Shown here: positions 22,562 to 39,057 of the stretch, piece by piece | How positions within the stretch are numbered: position 1 is the first letter of the stretch | How the letters are laid out: every line of letters begins with the position of its first letter | Origin: Bryobacterales bacterium | GTDB lineage: Bacteria; Acidobacteriota; Terriglobia; Bryobacterales; UBA6623 | DNA length: 64,000 bases | Assembly: GCA_965226435.1 (NCBI GenBank) | Contig: CBDDCY010000012.1 | Span: 553,138-617,137 of the forward strand | Direction of reading: 5' to 3' | The notes under the pieces: generated by a model | Told to the model about the DNA's origin: nothing | What the model saw: the letters and a program-made list of their open reading frames with translations, nothing else | Databases searched by the model: none | Made by a program: the position numbers and the translations under genes

Positions 22562-25012
22562 TTACTTGTTGCGGCCCTTGCCGTTGCCCGGTTTGTCGCC
22601 GCCACCGCCACCACCGCCGCCGCCGCCGCACTTCCCGAAGCCGGCCGAGATATCCATGCCGGTTGAGACGTTGACGGCACACGAAGTTTGCGCGGCGGGA
22701 TCGAGGCCGGCGCAGGCGCCGCCCCAGGAGAGCAGGCACTGCTTGTTCGCCGGTAGGGCCGTTACGGTGACGGTCTCGACCGGGCTTAGCGGATAGGTGT
22801 AGGTGCAATCGCCGCCGCAAGTCGCCGAGGGATTATCCAATTGGAATGATCCGCGGCCGCTGGTCTTGAAGACTCGCAAACTGACGGTCGGGGTCAAGAC
22901 GTTCAATGTGGCGGAATTCGAAACGTCGGAGAGCCCGGACGTTGTTTGTGTCGCGGTCACCGAGAGCCCCTGCGATGCCCCGCCGGCATCGGCCGCGGGT
23001 GTGATAGTCCAGGTGGCGCCGTCAGTCGCACCGGGTGCGATTCCCGTGATCGACGCCGCCAGGCTGGAGGTCCAACCAGCGGGCAGCGACGAGGGGGATA
23101 AGCTGAACGATTCGGGTGAACAGCCCTGGTTGTCGTGGTTAGTGACCGATACGCTGAAAGCCGCGGCCGAACCGGCGTCGGTACTCTGGCTCGAGGGCGA
23201 AAGCGTCAGGGTCGGGTCGGCGGGAATGCAGGCGATTGAACCGAACGTGACGCGGACTTCAAGGCGATTATCGCCGGTGAGCGAAAGGACCTCGATGGTC
23301 AAGTTACTGTAGGCGTCGCTCCAGGTCTCGCCGACGGCAAGCGCCGGGTCGCCAAAGGTTCCTGTTGCGGGGTGGAAGTCGAGCAGGTAGGTCTTGTGGC
23401 GGTGCGTACCCGAATCGTTGCGCGAGTCGTCGTAGCGAATCAAGGCGCCGCTCATGTCGGACGATGTGGTGGTCGTGGTGTCGAAATCGCCGCTGTTGTC
23501 GCGGTACTCAATCCACAGCCAGTTGTTGTTGGTCGTGTCGGTGCCGCGTTTGATCTTCAGCCCCTTTACTCCGGTGGCCGAGGATTCCGCCGGGTGCAAG
23601 TAAAACGTCCCGTTGGCATCGACCGTTTGCACGCTGTAGCTGCCCGAGTCGCTTGCGTACCAGCCCAGCTGGTTCTTTTGATAGGGCGTGAAATGACCTC
23701 TACTGCTGCCCATCACGGAGTACGGATCACCGTACTCACCGTGGCTGCCGCCGGTGGGATCGGGCGGACCCAATGGTTCGGCGCCAAAGTCGAGGGACCC
23801 CGAGTGGTGCAGCCACATGTTGTGGCCGACTTCGTGGGCGGCGACGCGAACGCCTTCGGCGCGGCTGTCCATTGCATTGGTGTGCAGCCAGGAATAGCCC
23901 GCCGGGGCGGAATTGTCGGGACGGGTGCCCCAGCAGCCGAGCGACCCGAGCCCATACCAGCACGAGGAGACTCCGGCCGGGGTGGGATGGACGAAGGCGA
24001 TGCGGTGATAGTTCTCGGGCACGAAACCGTCCGCGGAAGCCTTCTTGAGAGCGGCGTCGATGATTTGGTTGTAATCACCGGCGGCGGTCGAACAGCCGTA
24101 GGGGTTCGATTCGGGGGCGGGGTCCAATAGATAGGACGAACCGTCGAGCGGGTACACGTCCCCGGAAGCCGTGGTCGCCGAGGCGGTGTTGTAGGAGTTC
24201 TCGATGAAGTAGGTATTCACGGAGGCGGGCGCCGCGGAAAATCCGATGTCAAGTAGGCCTGGGCGTGTCACGTCCGTGGGGAATGGAGTGTCGGGGAACG
24301 TGATCATCAGAAACGCGATTTTCTGGTCGCCGGTCGTGTCGCTACAGGTGGCAGCAGCGGCCGAACTGGTGGTTTCCGTATCGACCCCGGCAATGGACCC
24401 TCCGGCGCGAACACCGGTCACGACTGCCTGGTCGCCGCTCTTGGCGTCGCCGGTTGCGTTGTCGGTGAAGTAGACCCGATACGATTCGCTGCCGACAACC
24501 AACTCGGTGACGGTGGTTTGCGTGTCGAGCGATTCCTGGTTGATGACGAGTTGTTGAAGCACTCCGCTCCAAGCGCCCTGCTCTTCCAGTAGGGCAGCCG
24601 AACTTGGGAAAGCGCCGCCAAGCTTCGTCAGTAAATCCTCGGAAAAGGCGTAGGACAAAGCGAGTTCAGGGTGCCTTTCGATCACGTACTCCAGGGCTTC
24701 AATCCGTGCCCCGAGAACTACGGCCGCGCGGCCTTGTAAAGCGGCTTGCTGCGCGGGGGAGGCGACGAGCTGTTCGCTCAGAATCTGAAGAACGGCGGAA
24801 TTGAGACTTCGCAGTTGCGCTTCTTCTTCCGCGACATGGTCGGCGGATAGGTTCGAAATCGCCGGACCGACCAGCACAAAAATGGCCCCAACAAGGACGG
24901 GGAGAGACGATACGACCTTGTTGATGATCCTGGTCGATAGGGGGCGCTGAGGCGATGAGACTTGTTTGAAACAAGCAGGCAAAAGGGCACTCATAACTCT
25001 GATCGTATTCAC
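22562..25012 (-). CDS. Secreted zinc metalloprotease (metzincin/gametolysin M11-like) with C-terminal beta-rich domains and a poly-Gly tail
   Basis: HEVGHNMWLHH fits HExxHxxxxxH. N-terminal signal-anchor. NEW3/CARDB-like segment (VTNHDNQGCSPESFSL). InlB-B-repeat-like Cys pattern. Ends with CGGGGGGGGGGDKPGNGKGRNK. Confidence 0.65.
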   Translation of the reverse strand: MNTIRVMSALLPACFKQVSSPQRPLSTRIINKVVSSLPVLVGAIFVLVGPAISNLSADHVAEEEAQLRSLNSAVLQILSEQLVASPAQQAALQGRAAVVLGARIEALEYVIERHPELALSYAFSEDLLTKLGGAFPSSAALLEEQGAWSGVLQQLVINQESLDTQTTVTELVVGSESYRVYFTDNATGDAKSGDQAVVTGVRAGGSIAGVDTETTSSAAAATCSDTTGDQKIAFLMITFPDTPFPTDVTRPGLLDIGFSAAPASVNTYFIENSYNTASATTASGDVYPLDGSSYLLDPAPESNPYGCSTAAGDYNQIIDAALKKASADGFVPENYHRIAFVHPTPAGVSSCWYGLGSLGCWGTRPDNSAPAGYSWLHTNAMDSRAEGVRVAAHEVGHNMWLHHSGSLDFGAEPLGPPDPTGGSHGEYGDPYSVMGSSRGHFTPYQKNQLGWYASDSGSYSVQTVDANGTFYLHPAESSATGVKGLKIKRGTDTTNNNWLWIEYRDNSGDFDTTTTTSSDMSGALIRYDDSRNDSGTHRHKTYLLDFHPATGTFGDPALAVGETWSDAYSNLTIEVLSLTGDNRLEVRVTFGSIACIPADPTLTLSPSSQSTDAGSAAAFSVSVTNHDNQGCSPESFSLSPSSLPAGWTSSLAASITGIAPGATDGATWTITPAADAGGASQGLSVTATQTTSGLSDVSNSATLNVLTPTVSLRVFKTSGRGSFQLDNPSATCGGDCTYTYPLSPVETVTVTALPANKQCLLSWGGACAGLDPAAQTSCAVNVSTGMDISAGFGKCGGGGGGGGGGDKPGNGKGRNK

Positions 25013-27336: not shown

Positions 27337-27544
27337 GATCTTCAGATTGCTTTCCGGCGCCGCCTATAAGTTACGGTCTGACTGGCGCACTACACGAGGG
27401 CGGTGCAACCTCGCCCCGCCCGCGGCCGTCGTGCTGCCCCGCCGTGAACGACGACATTCGAGATGTTGAAGGGCGATGATAATGTCCCCTTGAGAGGGCG
27501 ATAGAAATGTCCCCTAATCTAAGGCTCCGAAGGAGGAGCCTAGA

Positions 27545-28825
27545 TTGGAGAGGACATGGATGAACGACAAGGAATTGAGACGGGGCGAGGTACTGGGCCG
27601 GGTGAAGCGAGGCGAGTTGAAGCTGAGCGAGGCGGCGCGGATACTCGATATCAGTTATCGCCAGACCAAGCGGATCTGGAGGCGCTACAGCGCGGGAGGG
27701 ACAAAAGCATTGAAGCACGGCAACGTGGGCCGGGTATCGAACCGCGCCAAGCCGGCGGAAGTTCGCAAGCGAGTGCTGCAACTGGTGCGCGAACACTACT
27801 CCGGCGAGCCGCACGAGCGCTTCGGGCCGACGCTGGCGGCCGAGCATTTGTGGACAGACCACGATCTGAAACTATCGGTGCGAACACTGCGGCTCTGGAT
27901 GCTCGCCGAGGGCCTGTGGAGCCGCCGCCGCAAGCGCCGGCCGCATCGCTCGCGGCGGCGGCGTAAAGCGCACTTGGGCGAGCTGATCCAGGTCGACGGT
28001 TCGCACCACGAGTGGCTCGAAGCGCGCGGGCGGAAAGGTTGCCTGATGAACTTCGTCGACGATGCGACCGGTCTGGCGCTGTGCCGTTTCTCGAGCGAGG
28101 AAACGACTTGGGCGGCGGCCGATCTGCTCGAAGCCTGGGTGCGTCAATACGGCGTTCCGAAGGCGTTGTATTGCGACTGGAAGAACGTCTACAAGCGCCG
28201 GCCAACGTCGCGTGAAGCGCTGGAAGGCATCGAGCCCGAGACGCAGTTCGGACGCATGTGCGCCAAGCTCGGCATTGGTATCATCGCCGCTTCGTCACCG
28301 CAAGCGAAGGGCCGCGTGGAGCGCCATCACGGCACCCATCAAGACCGCCTGATCAAGAAGATGCGGCTCAAAGGCATTGCCGATTACGAGGCGGCGAACC
28401 GCTATCTCGACGAGCAGTATCTGCCAGAGCACAACGCCAAGTTCGCCTCTGAGCCGTCAGCGGGAGCGGACTTTCATCGGCGCTTATCGAAGCGTTTGGA
28501 CTTGAAGTGGGTGTTTTGCTTGGAGGGAGAGCGGGTGGTGTCCAACGACCTGGTGGTACGTTTCGAGAACCGTTTTCCGCAGTTGAAACCGCAGCGCAAT
28601 CAGGCTCTGGGCGCAGGCGCGAGAGTAACCGTGCAGCAAGCGCGCGAGGGCGAGTTGCGGGTGGTGTTCGAGGGGAAAACGGTGGCGTTCGACGAGATCG
28701 CCAAGCCGCTCCCCAAGGTGCGGCCGGAGCCGAAACCGCGCCTGGCGCCGCAGCCGCGCACACCGCCGGCGAATCACCCTTGGCGCGCGCCGTTGAAGCC
28801 GAAAAAACGGGCGGCGACCGCGTGA
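27545..28825 (+). CDS. ISNCY-family (rve/DDE) transposase
   Basis: N-terminal HTH (LKLSEAARILDISYRQTKRIWRRY), then FGPTLAAEHL..., GELIQVDGSHHEWLE, and an rve core ending QAKGRVERHHGTHQDRL. A more likely start is MNDKELRRG at 27560. Confidence 0.8.
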   Translation: MERTWMNDKELRRGEVLGRVKRGELKLSEAARILDISYRQTKRIWRRYSAGGTKALKHGNVGRVSNRAKPAEVRKRVLQLVREHYSGEPHERFGPTLAAEHLWTDHDLKLSVRTLRLWMLAEGLWSRRRKRRPHRSRRRRKAHLGELIQVDGSHHEWLEARGRKGCLMNFVDDATGLALCRFSSEETTWAAADLLEAWVRQYGVPKALYCDWKNVYKRRPTSREALEGIEPETQFGRMCAKLGIGIIAASSPQAKGRVERHHGTHQDRLIKKMRLKGIADYEAANRYLDEQYLPEHNAKFASEPSAGADFHRRLSKRLDLKWVFCLEGERVVSNDLVVRFENRFPQLKPQRNQALGAGARVTVQQAREGELRVVFEGKTVAFDEIAKPLPKVRPEPKPRLAPQPRTPPANHPWRAPLKPKKRAATA

Positions 28826-28985
28826 AGAGGGCTGTGGAAATGACGGGGCCGTGGAAAACGAGGAAAACCCTCGGCAGCCGACGAGGAGCTTCGAACCTCA
28901 TCGCTCGGGTTTCCCACGTTTCCCCCAGCCCCTTGGAAATCGCTGTGCGATTCCCACATTCCCACAAGCCCCTACGACTACTATC
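28826..28985 (-). other. Conserved self-complementary non-coding module inside the IS (copy 1)
   Basis: Outer stem ctgtggaaatg (28832-28842) pairs with cattcccacaag (28957-28968). Hairpin 1: ggaaaacgaggaaaacc (28853-28869) with ggtttcccacgtttccc (28908-28924). Hairpin 2: ggaaatcgc (28935-28943) with gcgattccc (28947-28955). It is shared with 38812-38940. Strand is assigned because the A:C mismatches become G-U pairs on the minus strand. Confidence 0.55.
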
Positions 28986-29147
28986 CTTTTACTTAAAAGG
29001 GGACATTTCTATCGCCCTACCGAGGGGGACATTTCTATCGCCTCTTGACACTCTTCGCGCCGGCCGCTTGTGTCCGGCTTCACCGGGGGTTACACTGAAC
29101 CGCGAATCGAACAATCGACGGGCGGCGGCATTTAGGCCCGTCTCTGT

Positions 29148-31598
29148 ATGGGGCTCCGCATGATCATCGACGTTGAAGATTTCCGCCATCATTTGCAGTC
29201 GGCCTATGCCGAATCCGACACTTACGCACCGTTAGAGCGGTTTCTCGCCGGCGTGGATGACCCGCGTCCACTCCGAAAGCGACGAGTCTTACGGCTCGGC
29301 AACAACGTGGCCGAGGCCGTCGAGGCCCTGCTGACTCCCACGGACGGCCAAGCACGACCCGATCCCTTGACCGCCATGGCCGAGGAGGTCGAAACCCTTT
29401 ATCAGAAAGCCGGCGTGAAAGAACGCTTCCAAGAAACCCTATCGGCGTGGCGCCAAACCGCCCAACCGGCTACCCAAGGGACCCCGTCGTCAAAGAACGT
29501 TATTCGCCTGCTCAAAAAGGTCGTGACCGACGCCCAAGCGGACGGCAAAATCTTGGAGGCTTTCACGGAACGCCGCCAAGACAAGACGACGCCCTTCTTG
29601 CTCGACGATTGCCTTCGCCGCACTCGCCTGTCAACGGAAAAAGCCTCCGTGGTGCGGCAAGCCATTGTGTTGATCTCGCAATTCAATGCCCACCTACCGT
29701 TCAAACGCGCCCGATACGCGATTGACCCTCTACAGAGGCTGCGGCTGATTGCTGACCGCGTCCCAACCATGACCGAGCGCGAATTCCACGCCGAGATGAT
29801 CGAGACTTTCAAGGAGTTACGCGACGCCCACACGTTCTATTCCCTCCCCCGGCCCTACCGCGGGCACGTCGCCTTTCTCCCTTTCCTGATGGAAGATTGC
29901 GCCGGCGAGACTCCCAAAAGTGCCCGACGCTACTTGGTGACAAAGATCCTGTCGGACTTCCCGGAATCGCCGTTCGAGCCGGGTGCCGAGGTCACGCACT
30001 GGAACGGCATGCCCATGGAAAAGGCCGTGCTCGACAATGCCGACCGCGAGCCGGGCAACAATCCCGCGTCCCGGCTGGCCCGGGGGCTGGCTCGTTCGAC
30101 GATCCGACCGCTCGCCTTTTCCCTTCCCCCCGACGAAGACTGGATCACCATCACCTATCTGCCCGCCCGCGAAGCCGAGTCCTCCGACCCGCCGCGCCCG
30201 CGCCGCATCATGCTTCCGTGGGGAGTTTGGCGAGGCCGCTCGCGCGAGCTTTTCGGCCGCGCGACGCATTCCTCGAGCGTCTGTGAATCCGTCGCGGAAA
30301 CTCACATCGCGCGCAAAGCGTTGTGGTGCGGCGACAAGAACGTCGCTGACGAAAAAGTGCGCCAATTCCGCGCGGGTCTGGAAACCAAGGGCGGCACCTT
30401 ACATGAAGCCGCCGCCGCCCAAGCGGACGAAGACGCGGATATCGATCTGTCGTCAACATCGATTTTCCCCGAAATATTTCAGTTCCGCGTCCCACTGCCT
30501 TTCTCAAACGCCGCCGGTCAACGCTTCGGATACGTCCGCATTCGCAATTTCGATCACGCGGGCGAGCATTCCGTGCCGGATTTCGTGGAGGAGTTTCGCC
30601 GTATTCTCACCATGGCCGCTCGGCTCGCGCCCGATGGGCTGATCGTCGATATTCGCGGCAATCCGGGCGGCTCGGTCCCCGCCGCCGAGCGGATTCTCCA
30701 GATGTTGACGCCTGGAACCGTCACCCCCGAGCGCTTCCACTGCATCAATACCCCCCTCATGCGGCGCATCGCGACAAAGGGTCCCCTCGATTTCATGGAT
30801 ATGCGTTTCGAGTTCGGTCGCGTCCTTTCCAACGGAAAACACCTGACTCGGCCCGATCAGGCTAACGACGTGGGGCAGGTCTATCACGGCCCCTCGGTGC
30901 TGATTACCGACGCCCTGTGCTACAGCGCCGCCGACATTTTCGCCGCCGGGTTCCAAGACCACGCCATCGGTCCGGTCATCGGAGTCGACACCAACACGGG
31001 CGCCGGCGGGGCGAACCGATGGATGCACCACGAACTCGTGAGCCGCTTGCGGAACCTTTCTCCCAATCCGCTCGAGCCCCTACCCGAAGGCACCGCGATG
31101 GGCGTGGCTCTGCGGCGCTCGCTGCGAGTGGGACGCCAAGCCGGCGAGCCGATCGAGGACGTCGGCGTCATGCCCGAAATCGTCTGTCCGCTGACCGCAA
31201 CCGACCTGCTCGAAGGAAACAGCGACTTGATCAATTTCGCTTGCGAAAACCTGGCCGGCCGACCGTCCTACCGGCTCGGCATCGAAGAAATTCTGGGCCG
31301 AATTCGCGCCGCGGGTTCCAAGGATTCGAAGCTCCGCTTGACCGTGGCCACGCGCGGCGTTACGCGGCTTGAGGCCCATATTCACGACCGCCCTCAGATC
31401 GCGGTTTCCGTGGACCCCGGCGAGTCGACGACAACGTTGGACGTCCCCCTGCCGAGCGAATTCACGCCGTTCAGCCTAGAGCTGAAAGGCTTCCTGTTTC
31501 AGAACTCGGAATGGGTCCTGGTCGCGTCGAGAAAACGAGAACTTACCACGGCGGATCGACGGATCCGCCCGCGGGCCGCCTCGGCGGCGGGCGCTTGA
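29148..31598 (+). CDS. S41-family (tail-specific/tricorn-core-like) serine peptidase with a long N-terminal extension
   Basis: IVDIRGNPGGS (nucleophile region) and LITDALCYSAADIFAAGFQD. The first ~450 aa are an uncharacterised region. Confidence 0.6.
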   Translation: MGLRMIIDVEDFRHHLQSAYAESDTYAPLERFLAGVDDPRPLRKRRVLRLGNNVAEAVEALLTPTDGQARPDPLTAMAEEVETLYQKAGVKERFQETLSAWRQTAQPATQGTPSSKNVIRLLKKVVTDAQADGKILEAFTERRQDKTTPFLLDDCLRRTRLSTEKASVVRQAIVLISQFNAHLPFKRARYAIDPLQRLRLIADRVPTMTEREFHAEMIETFKELRDAHTFYSLPRPYRGHVAFLPFLMEDCAGETPKSARRYLVTKILSDFPESPFEPGAEVTHWNGMPMEKAVLDNADREPGNNPASRLARGLARSTIRPLAFSLPPDEDWITITYLPAREAESSDPPRPRRIMLPWGVWRGRSRELFGRATHSSSVCESVAETHIARKALWCGDKNVADEKVRQFRAGLETKGGTLHEAAAAQADEDADIDLSSTSIFPEIFQFRVPLPFSNAAGQRFGYVRIRNFDHAGEHSVPDFVEEFRRILTMAARLAPDGLIVDIRGNPGGSVPAAERILQMLTPGTVTPERFHCINTPLMRRIATKGPLDFMDMRFEFGRVLSNGKHLTRPDQANDVGQVYHGPSVLITDALCYSAADIFAAGFQDHAIGPVIGVDTNTGAGGANRWMHHELVSRLRNLSPNPLEPLPEGTAMGVALRRSLRVGRQAGEPIEDVGVMPEIVCPLTATDLLEGNSDLINFACENLAGRPSYRLGIEEILGRIRAAGSKDSKLRLTVATRGVTRLEAHIHDRPQIAVSVDPGESTTTLDVPLPSEFTPFSLELKGFLFQNSEWVLVASRKRELTTADRRIRPRAASAAGA

Positions 31599-37407: not shown

Positions 37408-37556
37408 CAGTGTCCTAGTACTGAACAGTCTCAGGGTATACTATTCTTCACCGCACCACAAGGGCCAGTCTTGTCTCATGCAAGATGAGCCTGAACGAGG
37501 AGTTTGTTTCTCACACAAGATGAGCCTGCAGGATCGGGGAGTGGGCATGCTGGGGA

Positions 37557-38802
37557 TTGACTATCCAAGTGCAAAACGCCGGCAAGTTGAATCCGCAACA
37601 GATCCGGCAGTTTCTCCACTCCAGCCAGGAGATTCGATTCAAAGGCAAAGGGCGGGCCGAGATTTACGCTTGGGTGGCGCGCACGCTTGGCCGGCACGGC
37701 TACAGCCGCCAGAACCGCGCCGACAAAGGGCTGCTGCGGCAGTATCTGGTCAAGATGACCGGACTGAGCCGGGCGCAAATCACGCGGCTGATCCAGCAGT
37801 ACCGGCAGGGCGGAGAACTCCAACCCGCCCGCTACCGGCGGCATCGCTTTGCCCGCAAGTACACGCCCGCCGACGTCGAACTGCTGGCGGCGGTGGACGA
37901 GGCCCACGAAACCCTCAGCGGCCCGGCCACGCGCAAGATCCTCGAGCGGGAATACCAGCAGTACCAGCAGCGCGAATACGAGCGGTTGGCGGGGATCTCG
38001 GTGGCCCAGATCTATCGCCTGCGGCGGCGCAGTGCCTACCGCCGGCGGCGGCTGCATTTCACCAAGACCCGGCCCACAGCGGTGTCGATCGGCGAGCGGC
38101 GCCGGCCCGACCCGCAAGGCCGACCCGGCTTTCTGCGAGTGGATACGGTGCATCAAGGGGATCGCGATGGCGTCAAGGGCGTCTACCACATCAATGCCGT
38201 GGATGAAGTCACCCAGTGGCAAGTGGTCGGCGCCACAGCCGCGATCAGTGAAGCCTGGCTGGAGCCGTTGCTGAAAGCCATGATCGAGCAGTTTCCCTTT
38301 CGTATCCGCGGCTTCCATTCCGACAACGGCAGCGAGTTCCTCAATCGCACGGTGGAGAAGTTATTGAACAAGCTGCTGATCGAACAGACCAAGTCGCGTC
38401 CGCGGCACTCCAATGACAACGGCTTGGTGGAATCGAAAAACGGCGCGGTGATCCGCAAACACATGGGATATACGCACATCGCGGCGCCGCACGCGGGGCG
38501 CATCCAGCGCTTCTACCAACAGCACTTCAATCCCTATTTGAATTTCCACCGGCCCTGCGGACAGCCCGAGATCAAGACCGACGCCAAAGGCAAGCAGAAG
38601 CGGGTGTATCGCCACTACCAGACGCCTTGGGAATCTTTCGAGCAGTTGCCCGAGGCCGCCCGGCTACCTCAAGCCAGGGCACACGCTTGAGGCTCTGGGC
38701 CGCATTGCCCAGGCGGAAAGCGACACTGCGGCGGCGCGCCGGATGCAGCGAGCCAAGCACAAGCTGTTTGCCAGTTTCCGGTCCGCGAACACGCCGTGCT
38801 GA
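37557..38802 (+). pseudogene. rve/DDE transposase with one frameshift near 38655-38661
   Basis: Core motifs RVDTVHQGD, GFHSDNGSEF and SNDNGLVESKNG. The frame-3 ORF stops at 38690, but the family-typical C-terminus (GYLKPGHTLEALGRIAQAESDTAAARRMQRAKHKLF) continues in frame 1 to the TGA at 38800-38802. Confidence 0.7.
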
Positions 38803-38811
38803 ACAGCAGGA

Positions 38812-38940
38812 AGAGGGCTGTGGAAATGGCGGGCGGTGGAAAACGAGGAAAACCAAAACCAGGTTTCCCTTCGTTTCCCACCGCCCTTGGAAATCGCTCC
38901 GCGATTCCCCCATTCCCACAACCCCGACGACGATTCTCCC
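38812..38940 (-). other. Conserved self-complementary non-coding module inside the IS (copy 2)
   Basis: It has the same three stems as 28826-28985: outer 38818-38828 with 38911-38921, hairpin 1 38838-38854 with 38862-38879, hairpin 2 38889-38897 with 38901-38909. The hairpin-1 loop is 7 nt instead of 38 nt, and the hairpin-2 loop is tcc instead of tgt. Confidence 0.55.
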
Positions 38941-39057
38941 CTTCCCAAATCAAAACCAAAAAACCAGAAAGGAGCCCCAGCTACTCAAAAAGCCCCAACC
39001 CCCGTCTTCAGGCTCATCCTTCGATGAGAAAATGCTGGGCCTCGACGGAAAAAAAAT

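Follow-up and report, generated by a model that had tools for sequence, protein, structure and literature searches.

A structured antisense-strand module common to several insertion sequence families of Acidobacteriota

Between the last gene and the right end of an insertion sequence (IS) in a Bryobacterales genome lies one copy of a portable structured module that is carried by several unrelated IS families of Acidobacteriota (Bryobacterales, Terriglobales). The stretch of DNA analysed here, hereafter the window, is 64,000 nucleotides long, and the module occupies positions 28828..28972 on its minus strand. It follows the transposase stop codon (28823-28825) and precedes the inner right terminal repeat that begins at 28998, which is where a preliminary description of the same DNA had placed it. 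The segment folds into a three-way junction to an extent far beyond chance, and the modules found in other elements, 74-160 nt in size, usually form the same junction. Our confidence in the existence of a conserved antisense-strand fold common to several IS families is much higher than our confidence in any function proposed for it.

Structure of the module

The preliminary description had drawn an outer stem that encloses two hairpins, and each of these helices was recovered. The outer stem (28832-28842 with 28957-28968) carries one A·C mismatch and one bulged A and extends to 28828-28842 with 28957-28972; in this form, designated P1, it closes the module. Hairpin 1 (28853-28869 with 28908-28924), with 14 of 17 pairs formed, two A·C mismatches and one A·A, corresponds to P3 (28845-28886 with 28896-28932), which has a conserved basal portion (28845-28871 with 28907-28932) and a variable apex. 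Hairpin 2 (28935-28943 with 28947-28955; 8 of 9 pairs, one A·C) can be lengthened by one T-A pair and corresponds to P2 (28934-28943 with 28947-28956). As had been claimed, A·C accounts for four of the five mismatches on the plus strand: one in the outer stem, two in hairpin 1 and one in hairpin 2. P1, P2 and P3 are all assigned to the minus strand.

P2 is a 10-bp hairpin of conserved sequence, UGGGAAUCGC-N3-4-GCGAUUUCCA, with a conserved G·U pair and a loop of 3 or 4 nt whose sequence is free to vary. P3 ranges from absent (locus L044) to about 90 nt in length and is an optional part of the module. Toward the right IS end, P1 is followed by a short (NGU)n tail and an A+T-rich patch. In the window this 5′ flank of the module on the minus strand (28973..28997) is made up of (N-G-T) triplet repeats that read GTAGTAGTCGTA, where most relatives have CGTCGTCG, and then the patch; A+T content on that strand reaches 60-67% at -25 to -11 from P1, compared with a background of 42-47%.

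When folded as RNA, the minus strand of the window module reached -89.7 kcal/mol (z -7.18), a value equalled by 0 of 200 shuffles, compared with -63.5 kcal/mol (z -3.56) for the plus strand. The asymmetry was kept under DNA parameters, with -46.1 for the minus strand (z -6.8) and -34.6 for the plus strand (z -4.0). Two open reading frames overlap the segment, at 28774-28965 on the minus strand and 28851-29048 on the plus strand. A protein-coding reading of either was rejected because the insertions and deletions that separate variants are not multiples of three in length and both the loop and the apex vary freely.

Conservation among IS1202-type elements

The host element, IS#1 (27464-29050), had been described as ISNCY-like. 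A match to NCBIfam NF033594 (E 7.9e-115; 383.9 bits against a cut-off of 250) confirmed this and places the element more precisely in the IS1202 family. Its DDE transposase is encoded at 27560..28825 on the plus strand; the ORF finder began the frame at a TTG at 27545 (426 aa), and the ATG at 27560 fits the N-termini of homologues. Each end of IS#1 carries a doubled 21-nt repeat whose copies are spaced 25 bp apart. On the plus strand, the TGT terminus and outer repeat of the left end lie at 27464..27490, a boundary set by comparing many copies with different flanks, and the inner left repeat lies at 27495..27515; the inner and outer right repeats lie at 28998..29018 and 29023..29050. The left terminus at 27464 reads TGTTGAAG and the right terminus at 29050 reads CTTGACA, an outward -35-like sequence whose reverse complement is TGTCAAG, such that both ends start with 5′-TGT.

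About 80 related IS1202-type copies were drawn from Bryobacterales (Acidobacteriota) assemblies, and the module was found 3′ of the transposase stop codon in nearly all of these loci. The exceptions were L009 and L039, which had no module match, L039 matching transposase residues 1-354 only, and L044, which retains just P1 and P2. Thirty-nine distinct variants, with transposases that are 70-98% identical, were aligned on the minus strand. RNAalifold returned an identical three-way junction for this alignment, and the fold is adopted by 39/39 variants, at -72 to -94 kcal/mol on the minus strand and -60 to -79 kcal/mol on the plus strand. Paired cells amounted to 98.9% on the minus strand, where 165 cells at 10 pair positions were G·U wobbles possible on that strand only; just 3 were wobbles on the plus strand only.

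Relative to the window copy, stem columns were ~90% identical where transposase codon positions 1 and 2 were 82% identical and position 3 ~60%; identity in unpaired columns was ~32%. The stems are therefore more constrained than the transposase gene, a difference for which gene conversion between IS copies in the same cell could account in part. The P3 apex is free to vary in the IS1202 set and is the sole hypervariable part of the module, missing from most versions. The IS copies at loci L046-L081, all from one Bryobacterales genome, had identical stems and differed mostly at a few P3-apex positions (GGAUCCUCGA, GGUUCCCCGA, GGAUCCGCGA and others). By eye, 7 nt of the P3 apex match the 5′ UTR (GAGGAGC), a similarity set aside because it is insignificant and can have no bearing on versions without an apex.

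A second copy in the window

The same window contains a second module copy, missed by the preliminary description, at 38813..38929 on the minus strand (106.6 bits). Its P1 and P2 are like those of the first copy, its P3 is short with a 7-nt loop, and it folds at -83.0 kcal/mol on the minus strand versus -59.8 kcal/mol on the plus strand. The host, IS#2 (37467..39036, plus strand), is an IS481-like element that has terminal repeats of its own and is flanked by a 5-bp GGGCC repeat, its right end having been placed by comparison. The IS#2 transposase has an rve core with a weak IS481-like match, and similarity to the IS#1 transposase was not detectable. Homologues down to 69% amino acid identity all have the module with a short P3. 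The transposase ORF spans 37557-38690 and homologues are ~410 aa long (region 37557-38803), a length that suggests a possible break in the frame close to the 3′ end.

Occurrence in unrelated IS families

Metagenome contigs were scanned with the P2 hairpin pattern, which yielded at least 120 loci, and a covariance model built from the IS1202 alignment was run on the first 100 of them, giving 97 matching places. Module lengths among the matches listed clustered near 74, 92-101, 110 and 143 nt. An ORF of at least 120 aa on the same strand ended near the module start in 73 of the 97 matches listed, and the gap between stop codon and module was mostly 0-26 nt, with a few longer gaps of up to 386 nt. 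The other matches listed were mostly truncated contigs or degenerate copies of the same families.

The upstream proteins were clustered and representatives were checked by Pfam. Among the matches listed, the upstream gene belonged to the IS481-like transposase family of IS#2 at 21 loci (rve), encoded an IS110-type recombinase at another 21 (DEDD_Tnp_IS110 and Transposase_20) and was the IstB gene of IS21 at 20 (IstB_IS21). IS3 OrfB was found at 4 loci (HTH_21, rve, rve_2, rve_3), another IS481-like group at 2 (HTH_28, rve, rve_3) and the IS1202 type at 1 (NF033594). Upstream genes thus fall into at least six unrelated protein clusters, namely IS1202, two IS481-like, IS110, IstB and IS3. One frameshifted copy that carries the module looked IS630-like by eye, and an IS4-type gene lies 295 nt upstream of one module copy, a doubtful link.

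The orientation of the module relative to the upstream gene was the same in every IS family. In each family conserved IS sequence runs on past the module to the right end, which places the module inside the elements. Homologues of the IS110-type protein carry the source names Terriglobales and Acidobacteriaceae. No solitary copy outside an IS was found in ~1.7 Mb of Bryobacterales DNA and the 64-kb window, and the metagenome matches listed were almost all IS-borne. PLSDB plasmids gave no module match and viral contigs gave one only.

Covariation and strand asymmetry

Covariance modelling had been named in the preliminary description as a check on the fold. Across the 91 distinct metagenome variants listed, 26 of 44 pairs changed on both sides, in 377 cells, with P1 and P3 covarying extensively. 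This alignment was fitted to the covariance model, and the invariance of P2 within it is by construction, P2 being the scan pattern. Paired cells made up 95.8% in the metagenome variants listed, compared with 82% in shuffles and ~50% when partners were slid by one to three columns. In the IS110 versions, P1 and P3 stay paired though their sequences are entirely different.

Wobbles were again confined largely to one strand. All metagenome variants listed together held 295 minus-only and 24 plus-only wobble cells, and among the variants listed the counts were 60 and 1 in the IS110 subset, 82 and 11 in the IS21 subset, and 13 and 0 in the IS3 subset. The earlier statement that the structure is better on the minus strand was therefore upheld both in the 39 IS1202 variants and across families. 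Taken together, the covariation, the free P2 loop, the variable P3, the sequence replacements in IS110 versions and the strand asymmetry argue for a folded single strand, as opposed to a double-stranded operator or a set of protein-binding repeats.

Transcription signals and strand exposure

Among 73 IS copies, the GC skew of the flank was positive for 41 and negative for 32, which amounts to no bias. An orientation that is fixed relative to the gene and unbiased relative to GC skew fits a transcription-linked role better than exposure of one strand during replication. In scans around four elements, no sigma-70 consensus promoter was found on the minus strand by the module and no consensus terminator was found on the minus strand adjoining it. 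The A+T-rich patch, 10-25 nt before P1 on the minus strand, occupies the -10 position for a start in the (NGU)n tail. Hexamers resembling a -10 element were present in the patch in 49% of cases, compared with 40% in composition-matched shuffles and 40% on the other strand, a difference that is not significant; only its A+T richness sets the patch apart.

A run of U residues (at least 5 U in 8 nt) followed P1 on the minus strand in 22% of variants, mostly of the IS1202 (11/25) and IS21 (7/21) types, compared with 19% in a control window. On the plus strand such a run followed P1 in 8% of variants, with 8-10 nt of CGACGACG in between. As to the nature of the folded strand, G·T wobbles are tolerated in single-stranded DNA too, where DNA parameters give the same asymmetry, and the tight spacing to the stop codon would equally suit a role in the sense mRNA.

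Comparison with known systems

The usual view of the non-coding parts of insertion sequences, among them terminal repeats, 5′ UTR hairpins, antisense RNAs and guide RNAs, is that each belongs to a particular family. A comparison with Rfam, also named in the preliminary description, gave only chance-level matches for the window module (Rfam 15, permissive thresholds; E 0.01-10), far below gathering scores, and the same was true of six loci from other IS families. Literature searches on the sequence, on RNAs of IS1202/ISNCY elements, on RNAs of acidobacterial IS and on stem-loops common to IS families returned no description of the module.

In known antisense pairs the antisense fold is more stable than its sense complement, and the module resembles them in this respect. 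RNA-OUT of IS10/Tn10 and Asr9/Ssr9 of ISPpu9 are small, very stable structured RNAs encoded inside an IS opposite the transposase, as the product of the module would be. RNAs of the RNA-OUT type base-pair at the start or 5′ UTR of the transposase mRNA and belong to one IS each, whereas the module recurs in several unrelated families. An RNA-OUT-type regulator would be complementary to the ribosome-binding site or 5′ end of that mRNA, but the module lies wholly past the stop codon at 28823-28825. In ISPpu9, the sRNA genes Asr9 and Ssr9 flank tnp, one of them downstream (PMC8450116).

Repetitive extragenic palindromes (REPs) offer a different comparison. They too are imperfect palindromes found just 3′ of coding regions. 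REPs carry an unpaired GTAG or CGTC by the stem on the better-folding strand; in the module such a tetranucleotide by P1 is part of (NGT)n repeats and lies at a varying distance from the stem. The REP super-families are defined by GTAG and CGTC tags, and REPs are thought to act as RNA elements or as single-stranded DNA substrates (PMC3733652). REPs are, however, single hairpins of 20-40 bp that are scattered outside genes in many copies and associated with RAYT genes, whereas the module is 74-160 nt long and was found inside insertion sequences only. Membership of the REPs was rejected on grounds of size and distribution.

The IS110 bridge RNA and the IS200/IS605 omega RNA resemble the module in being structured non-coding regions at an IS end by the recombinase gene. 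They differ in that they are read from the sense strand, are specific to a family and contain guide segments, whereas the module is an antisense-strand fold that crosses families and whose variable segment is dispensable. Rolling-circle plasmids have single-strand origins (sso), folded cassettes of about 100-200 nt that are strand- and orientation-specific, host-dependent and exchangeable between replicons, features that the module may share; no sso-like signal is known in insertion sequences.

Proposed role and alternative explanations

We propose, at slightly less than an even chance, that the module is a portable antisense-strand structured RNA and affects transcripts where the last IS gene ends; we infer its RNA nature, its ends and its role from the fold and its position. 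Such an RNA would arise from weak initiation within the A+T-rich patch or by read-in across the right end. The minus-strand transcript would form a very stable junction that abuts the stop codon, and the complement in the 3′ UTR of the transposase mRNA would fold far less well because the wobbles become A·C mismatches. The stable RNA would then stop or insulate antisense transcription before it reaches the IS gene, or would pair with the 3′ end of the mRNA and set its fate. P2 and the junction would probably be recognised by a host factor, and such a factor would account for the compatibility of the module with any transposase and its confinement to one phylum. A classical antisense regulator of the transposase, one of three roles suggested in the preliminary description, found no direct support, since the module starts after the stop codon and lies outside both the coding region and the 5′ UTR.

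A broader proposal, which we regard as speculative and more probably wrong than right, is that the module is a transposase-independent cassette, exchanged and retained by unrelated acidobacterial IS because it attracts, or acts as a decoy for, a single host factor, for example an RNA-binding protein, an RNase, the replication or priming machinery, or a defence system. The module follows genes for a DDE transposase, a DEDD recombinase or an AAA+ helper alike, which points to a host-dependent function as opposed to transposition chemistry. Its presence across families is a further indication, namely that IS families trade non-coding parts as modules. If the host-factor proposal is true, an accessory function would be shared by a whole mobilome, not by one element.

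The same fold can be read as an element of single-stranded DNA from the minus strand, either a REP-like palindrome tagged with GTAG or CGTC and recognised by an HUH/Y1 enzyme, or an sso-like, strand-specific priming signal that would aid conversion of the displaced strand in copy-out transposition. The strand asymmetry is equally strong with DNA parameters, the unpaired minus-strand tail by P1 has GTAG in the window but CGTC in the majority of relatives, and a cassette that is mobile or dependent on host machinery would explain the spread among IS families of one host lineage; a distinct group of Y1 transposases has been reported in Acidobacteria (PMC3733652). We nevertheless consider this reading unlikely. 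The ~1.7 Mb of Bryobacterales DNA and the 64-kb window held no solitary copy and the metagenome matches listed were almost all IS-borne, a three-way junction of 74-160 nt is far from a REP of 20-40 bp, and the tags arise from (NGT)n triplets at a varying distance from P1. The lack of GC-skew bias speaks against dependence on the lagging strand, though not against single-stranded DNA made during transposition. Quite unlikely, in our estimate, is an element of the sense transcript, in which the 3′ UTR would act as a terminator, a block to 3′ exonucleases or a stop-proximal structure that tunes translation, and would guard the right end from transcription. REP sequences near stop codons have been reported to tune translation. 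In every family the distance from stop codon to module is 0-26 nt (in most matches listed), the plus strand also folds better than chance (z -3.6; -60 to -79 kcal/mol), and all IS families need their transcript to end before the right end, which would explain portability. It is the other strand, however, on which pairing is kept: ~10% of cells are A·C in the sense RNA, at conserved positions, whereas the converse holds for 3 and 24 cells in the two alignments, and P1 on the plus strand is followed by a U-tract in only 8% of variants.

Two further explanations were considered. That the module is an array of double-stranded DNA sites (GTGGAAA / TTCCCAC units) bound by the transposase or by a host protein, with the fold as a by-product, would suit the eight TGG(G/A)AA units present in both orientations in the window copy and the high conservation of stem sequence within the IS1202 lineage. 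The units are unlike the terminal repeats of IS#1 or IS#2, however, and the module is common to unrelated transposases and also follows a non-transposase gene; IS110 versions swap the sequences of P1 and P3 entirely while keeping them paired, the spacing of the P2 half-sites is 3 or 4 nt, and strand-specific wobbles are meaningless for duplex DNA. We regard this array as very improbable. The transposase-binding scaffold suggested in the preliminary description is disfavoured by the position of the module after genes as unrelated as those for the IS110 DEDD recombinase and the IS21 IstB ATPase, and by its dissimilarity to the terminal repeats. The third earlier suggestion, a guide-like RNA that programs target or donor recognition in the manner of bridge or omega RNAs, draws on the location of a structured non-coding region with one hypervariable segment, the P3 apex, at an IS end, and on the few apex positions at which copies in the same genome differ. 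The module serves families of different chemistries (DDE, DEDD) and accompanies IstB in IS21, however, and the apex is missing in most versions. Moreover, the 72 insertion sites of IS#1-type elements have in common just a position-specific TTGAC, the duplicated 17 bp looking unrelated, and IS110-type elements keep more than 170 nt of conserved non-coding DNA of their own past the module. A guide role is thus extremely improbable, and it is the sharing of the module by several IS families that leads us to reject both it and the transposase scaffold.

Whatever the function proves to be, whether in antisense transcription, mRNA fate, priming or host evasion, it would apply to much of the mobilome of a dominant soil phylum. 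The module could also supply a compact, portable and strand-specific regulatory part, and it can already serve as a convenient marker in the annotation of right IS ends in Acidobacteriota.

Ends, insertion sites and neighbouring sequences

Relatives of IS#1 are flanked by target duplications of 17 bp at loci L003, L044 and L073 and of about 15-17 bp at L008. The ISTde1 subgroup of the IS1202 family is defined by TGT ends and a target duplication of 16-17 bp (10.1101/2022.12.17.520857), and, as judged from sequence, the TGT ends of IS#1 and the 17-bp duplications of its relatives match this subgroup. The window copy of IS#1 has no 17-bp duplication, since 27447-27463 differs from 29051-29067. 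The absence of a duplication that relatives possess suggests a past rearrangement between copies.

IS#1 holds the parts of a junction promoter. In the outer left repeat (27464-27490), TGATAAT takes the place of the TAGAAAT found in the other three copies, which creates an inward -10-like sequence, and an outward TTGACA lies at the right tip (29044-29050). Joined through a spacer of ~3 bp, the two ends would give TTGACA-17-GATAAT, as in copy-out-paste-in elements.

A target preference was apparent in 72 distinct right flanks (L001-L081; 29051-29075 in the window). TTGAC begins 16-18 nt past the IS end in 28 of these flanks, and TTG does so in 51; within 40 nt, TTGAC was seen at no other offset. 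Lying just past the 17-bp duplication, the motif is the same as that in the IS#1 terminus, CTTGACA. Its fixed offset indicates that IS1202-type elements tend to land, in one orientation, just upstream of sequences that resemble a -35 element or their own end.

Additional conserved sequences were seen past the module in two other families. In the IS110-type loci (L092-L182; for example L097, 1942-2150), more than 170 nt of strongly conserved non-coding DNA follow the 74-nt module; this stretch had no Rfam match and may be the elements' own 3′ non-coding RNA of the bridge or seek type. At four IS21-type loci (L125, L140, L153 and L154), a second small hairpin lies 15-45 nt past the module, with a TATATA-like tract on one side and the right-end IstA-binding repeats on the other, and its arms appear by eye to covary (for example GGTGAGGC...GCCTTAC).

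The IS region of the window is flanked by two ORFs of 816 aa each, one at 22562-25012 on the minus strand with an NPCBM-associated domain and one at 29148-31598 on the plus strand with a Peptidase_S41 domain. Because their domains differ, the equal length is a coincidence and not the result of a duplication.
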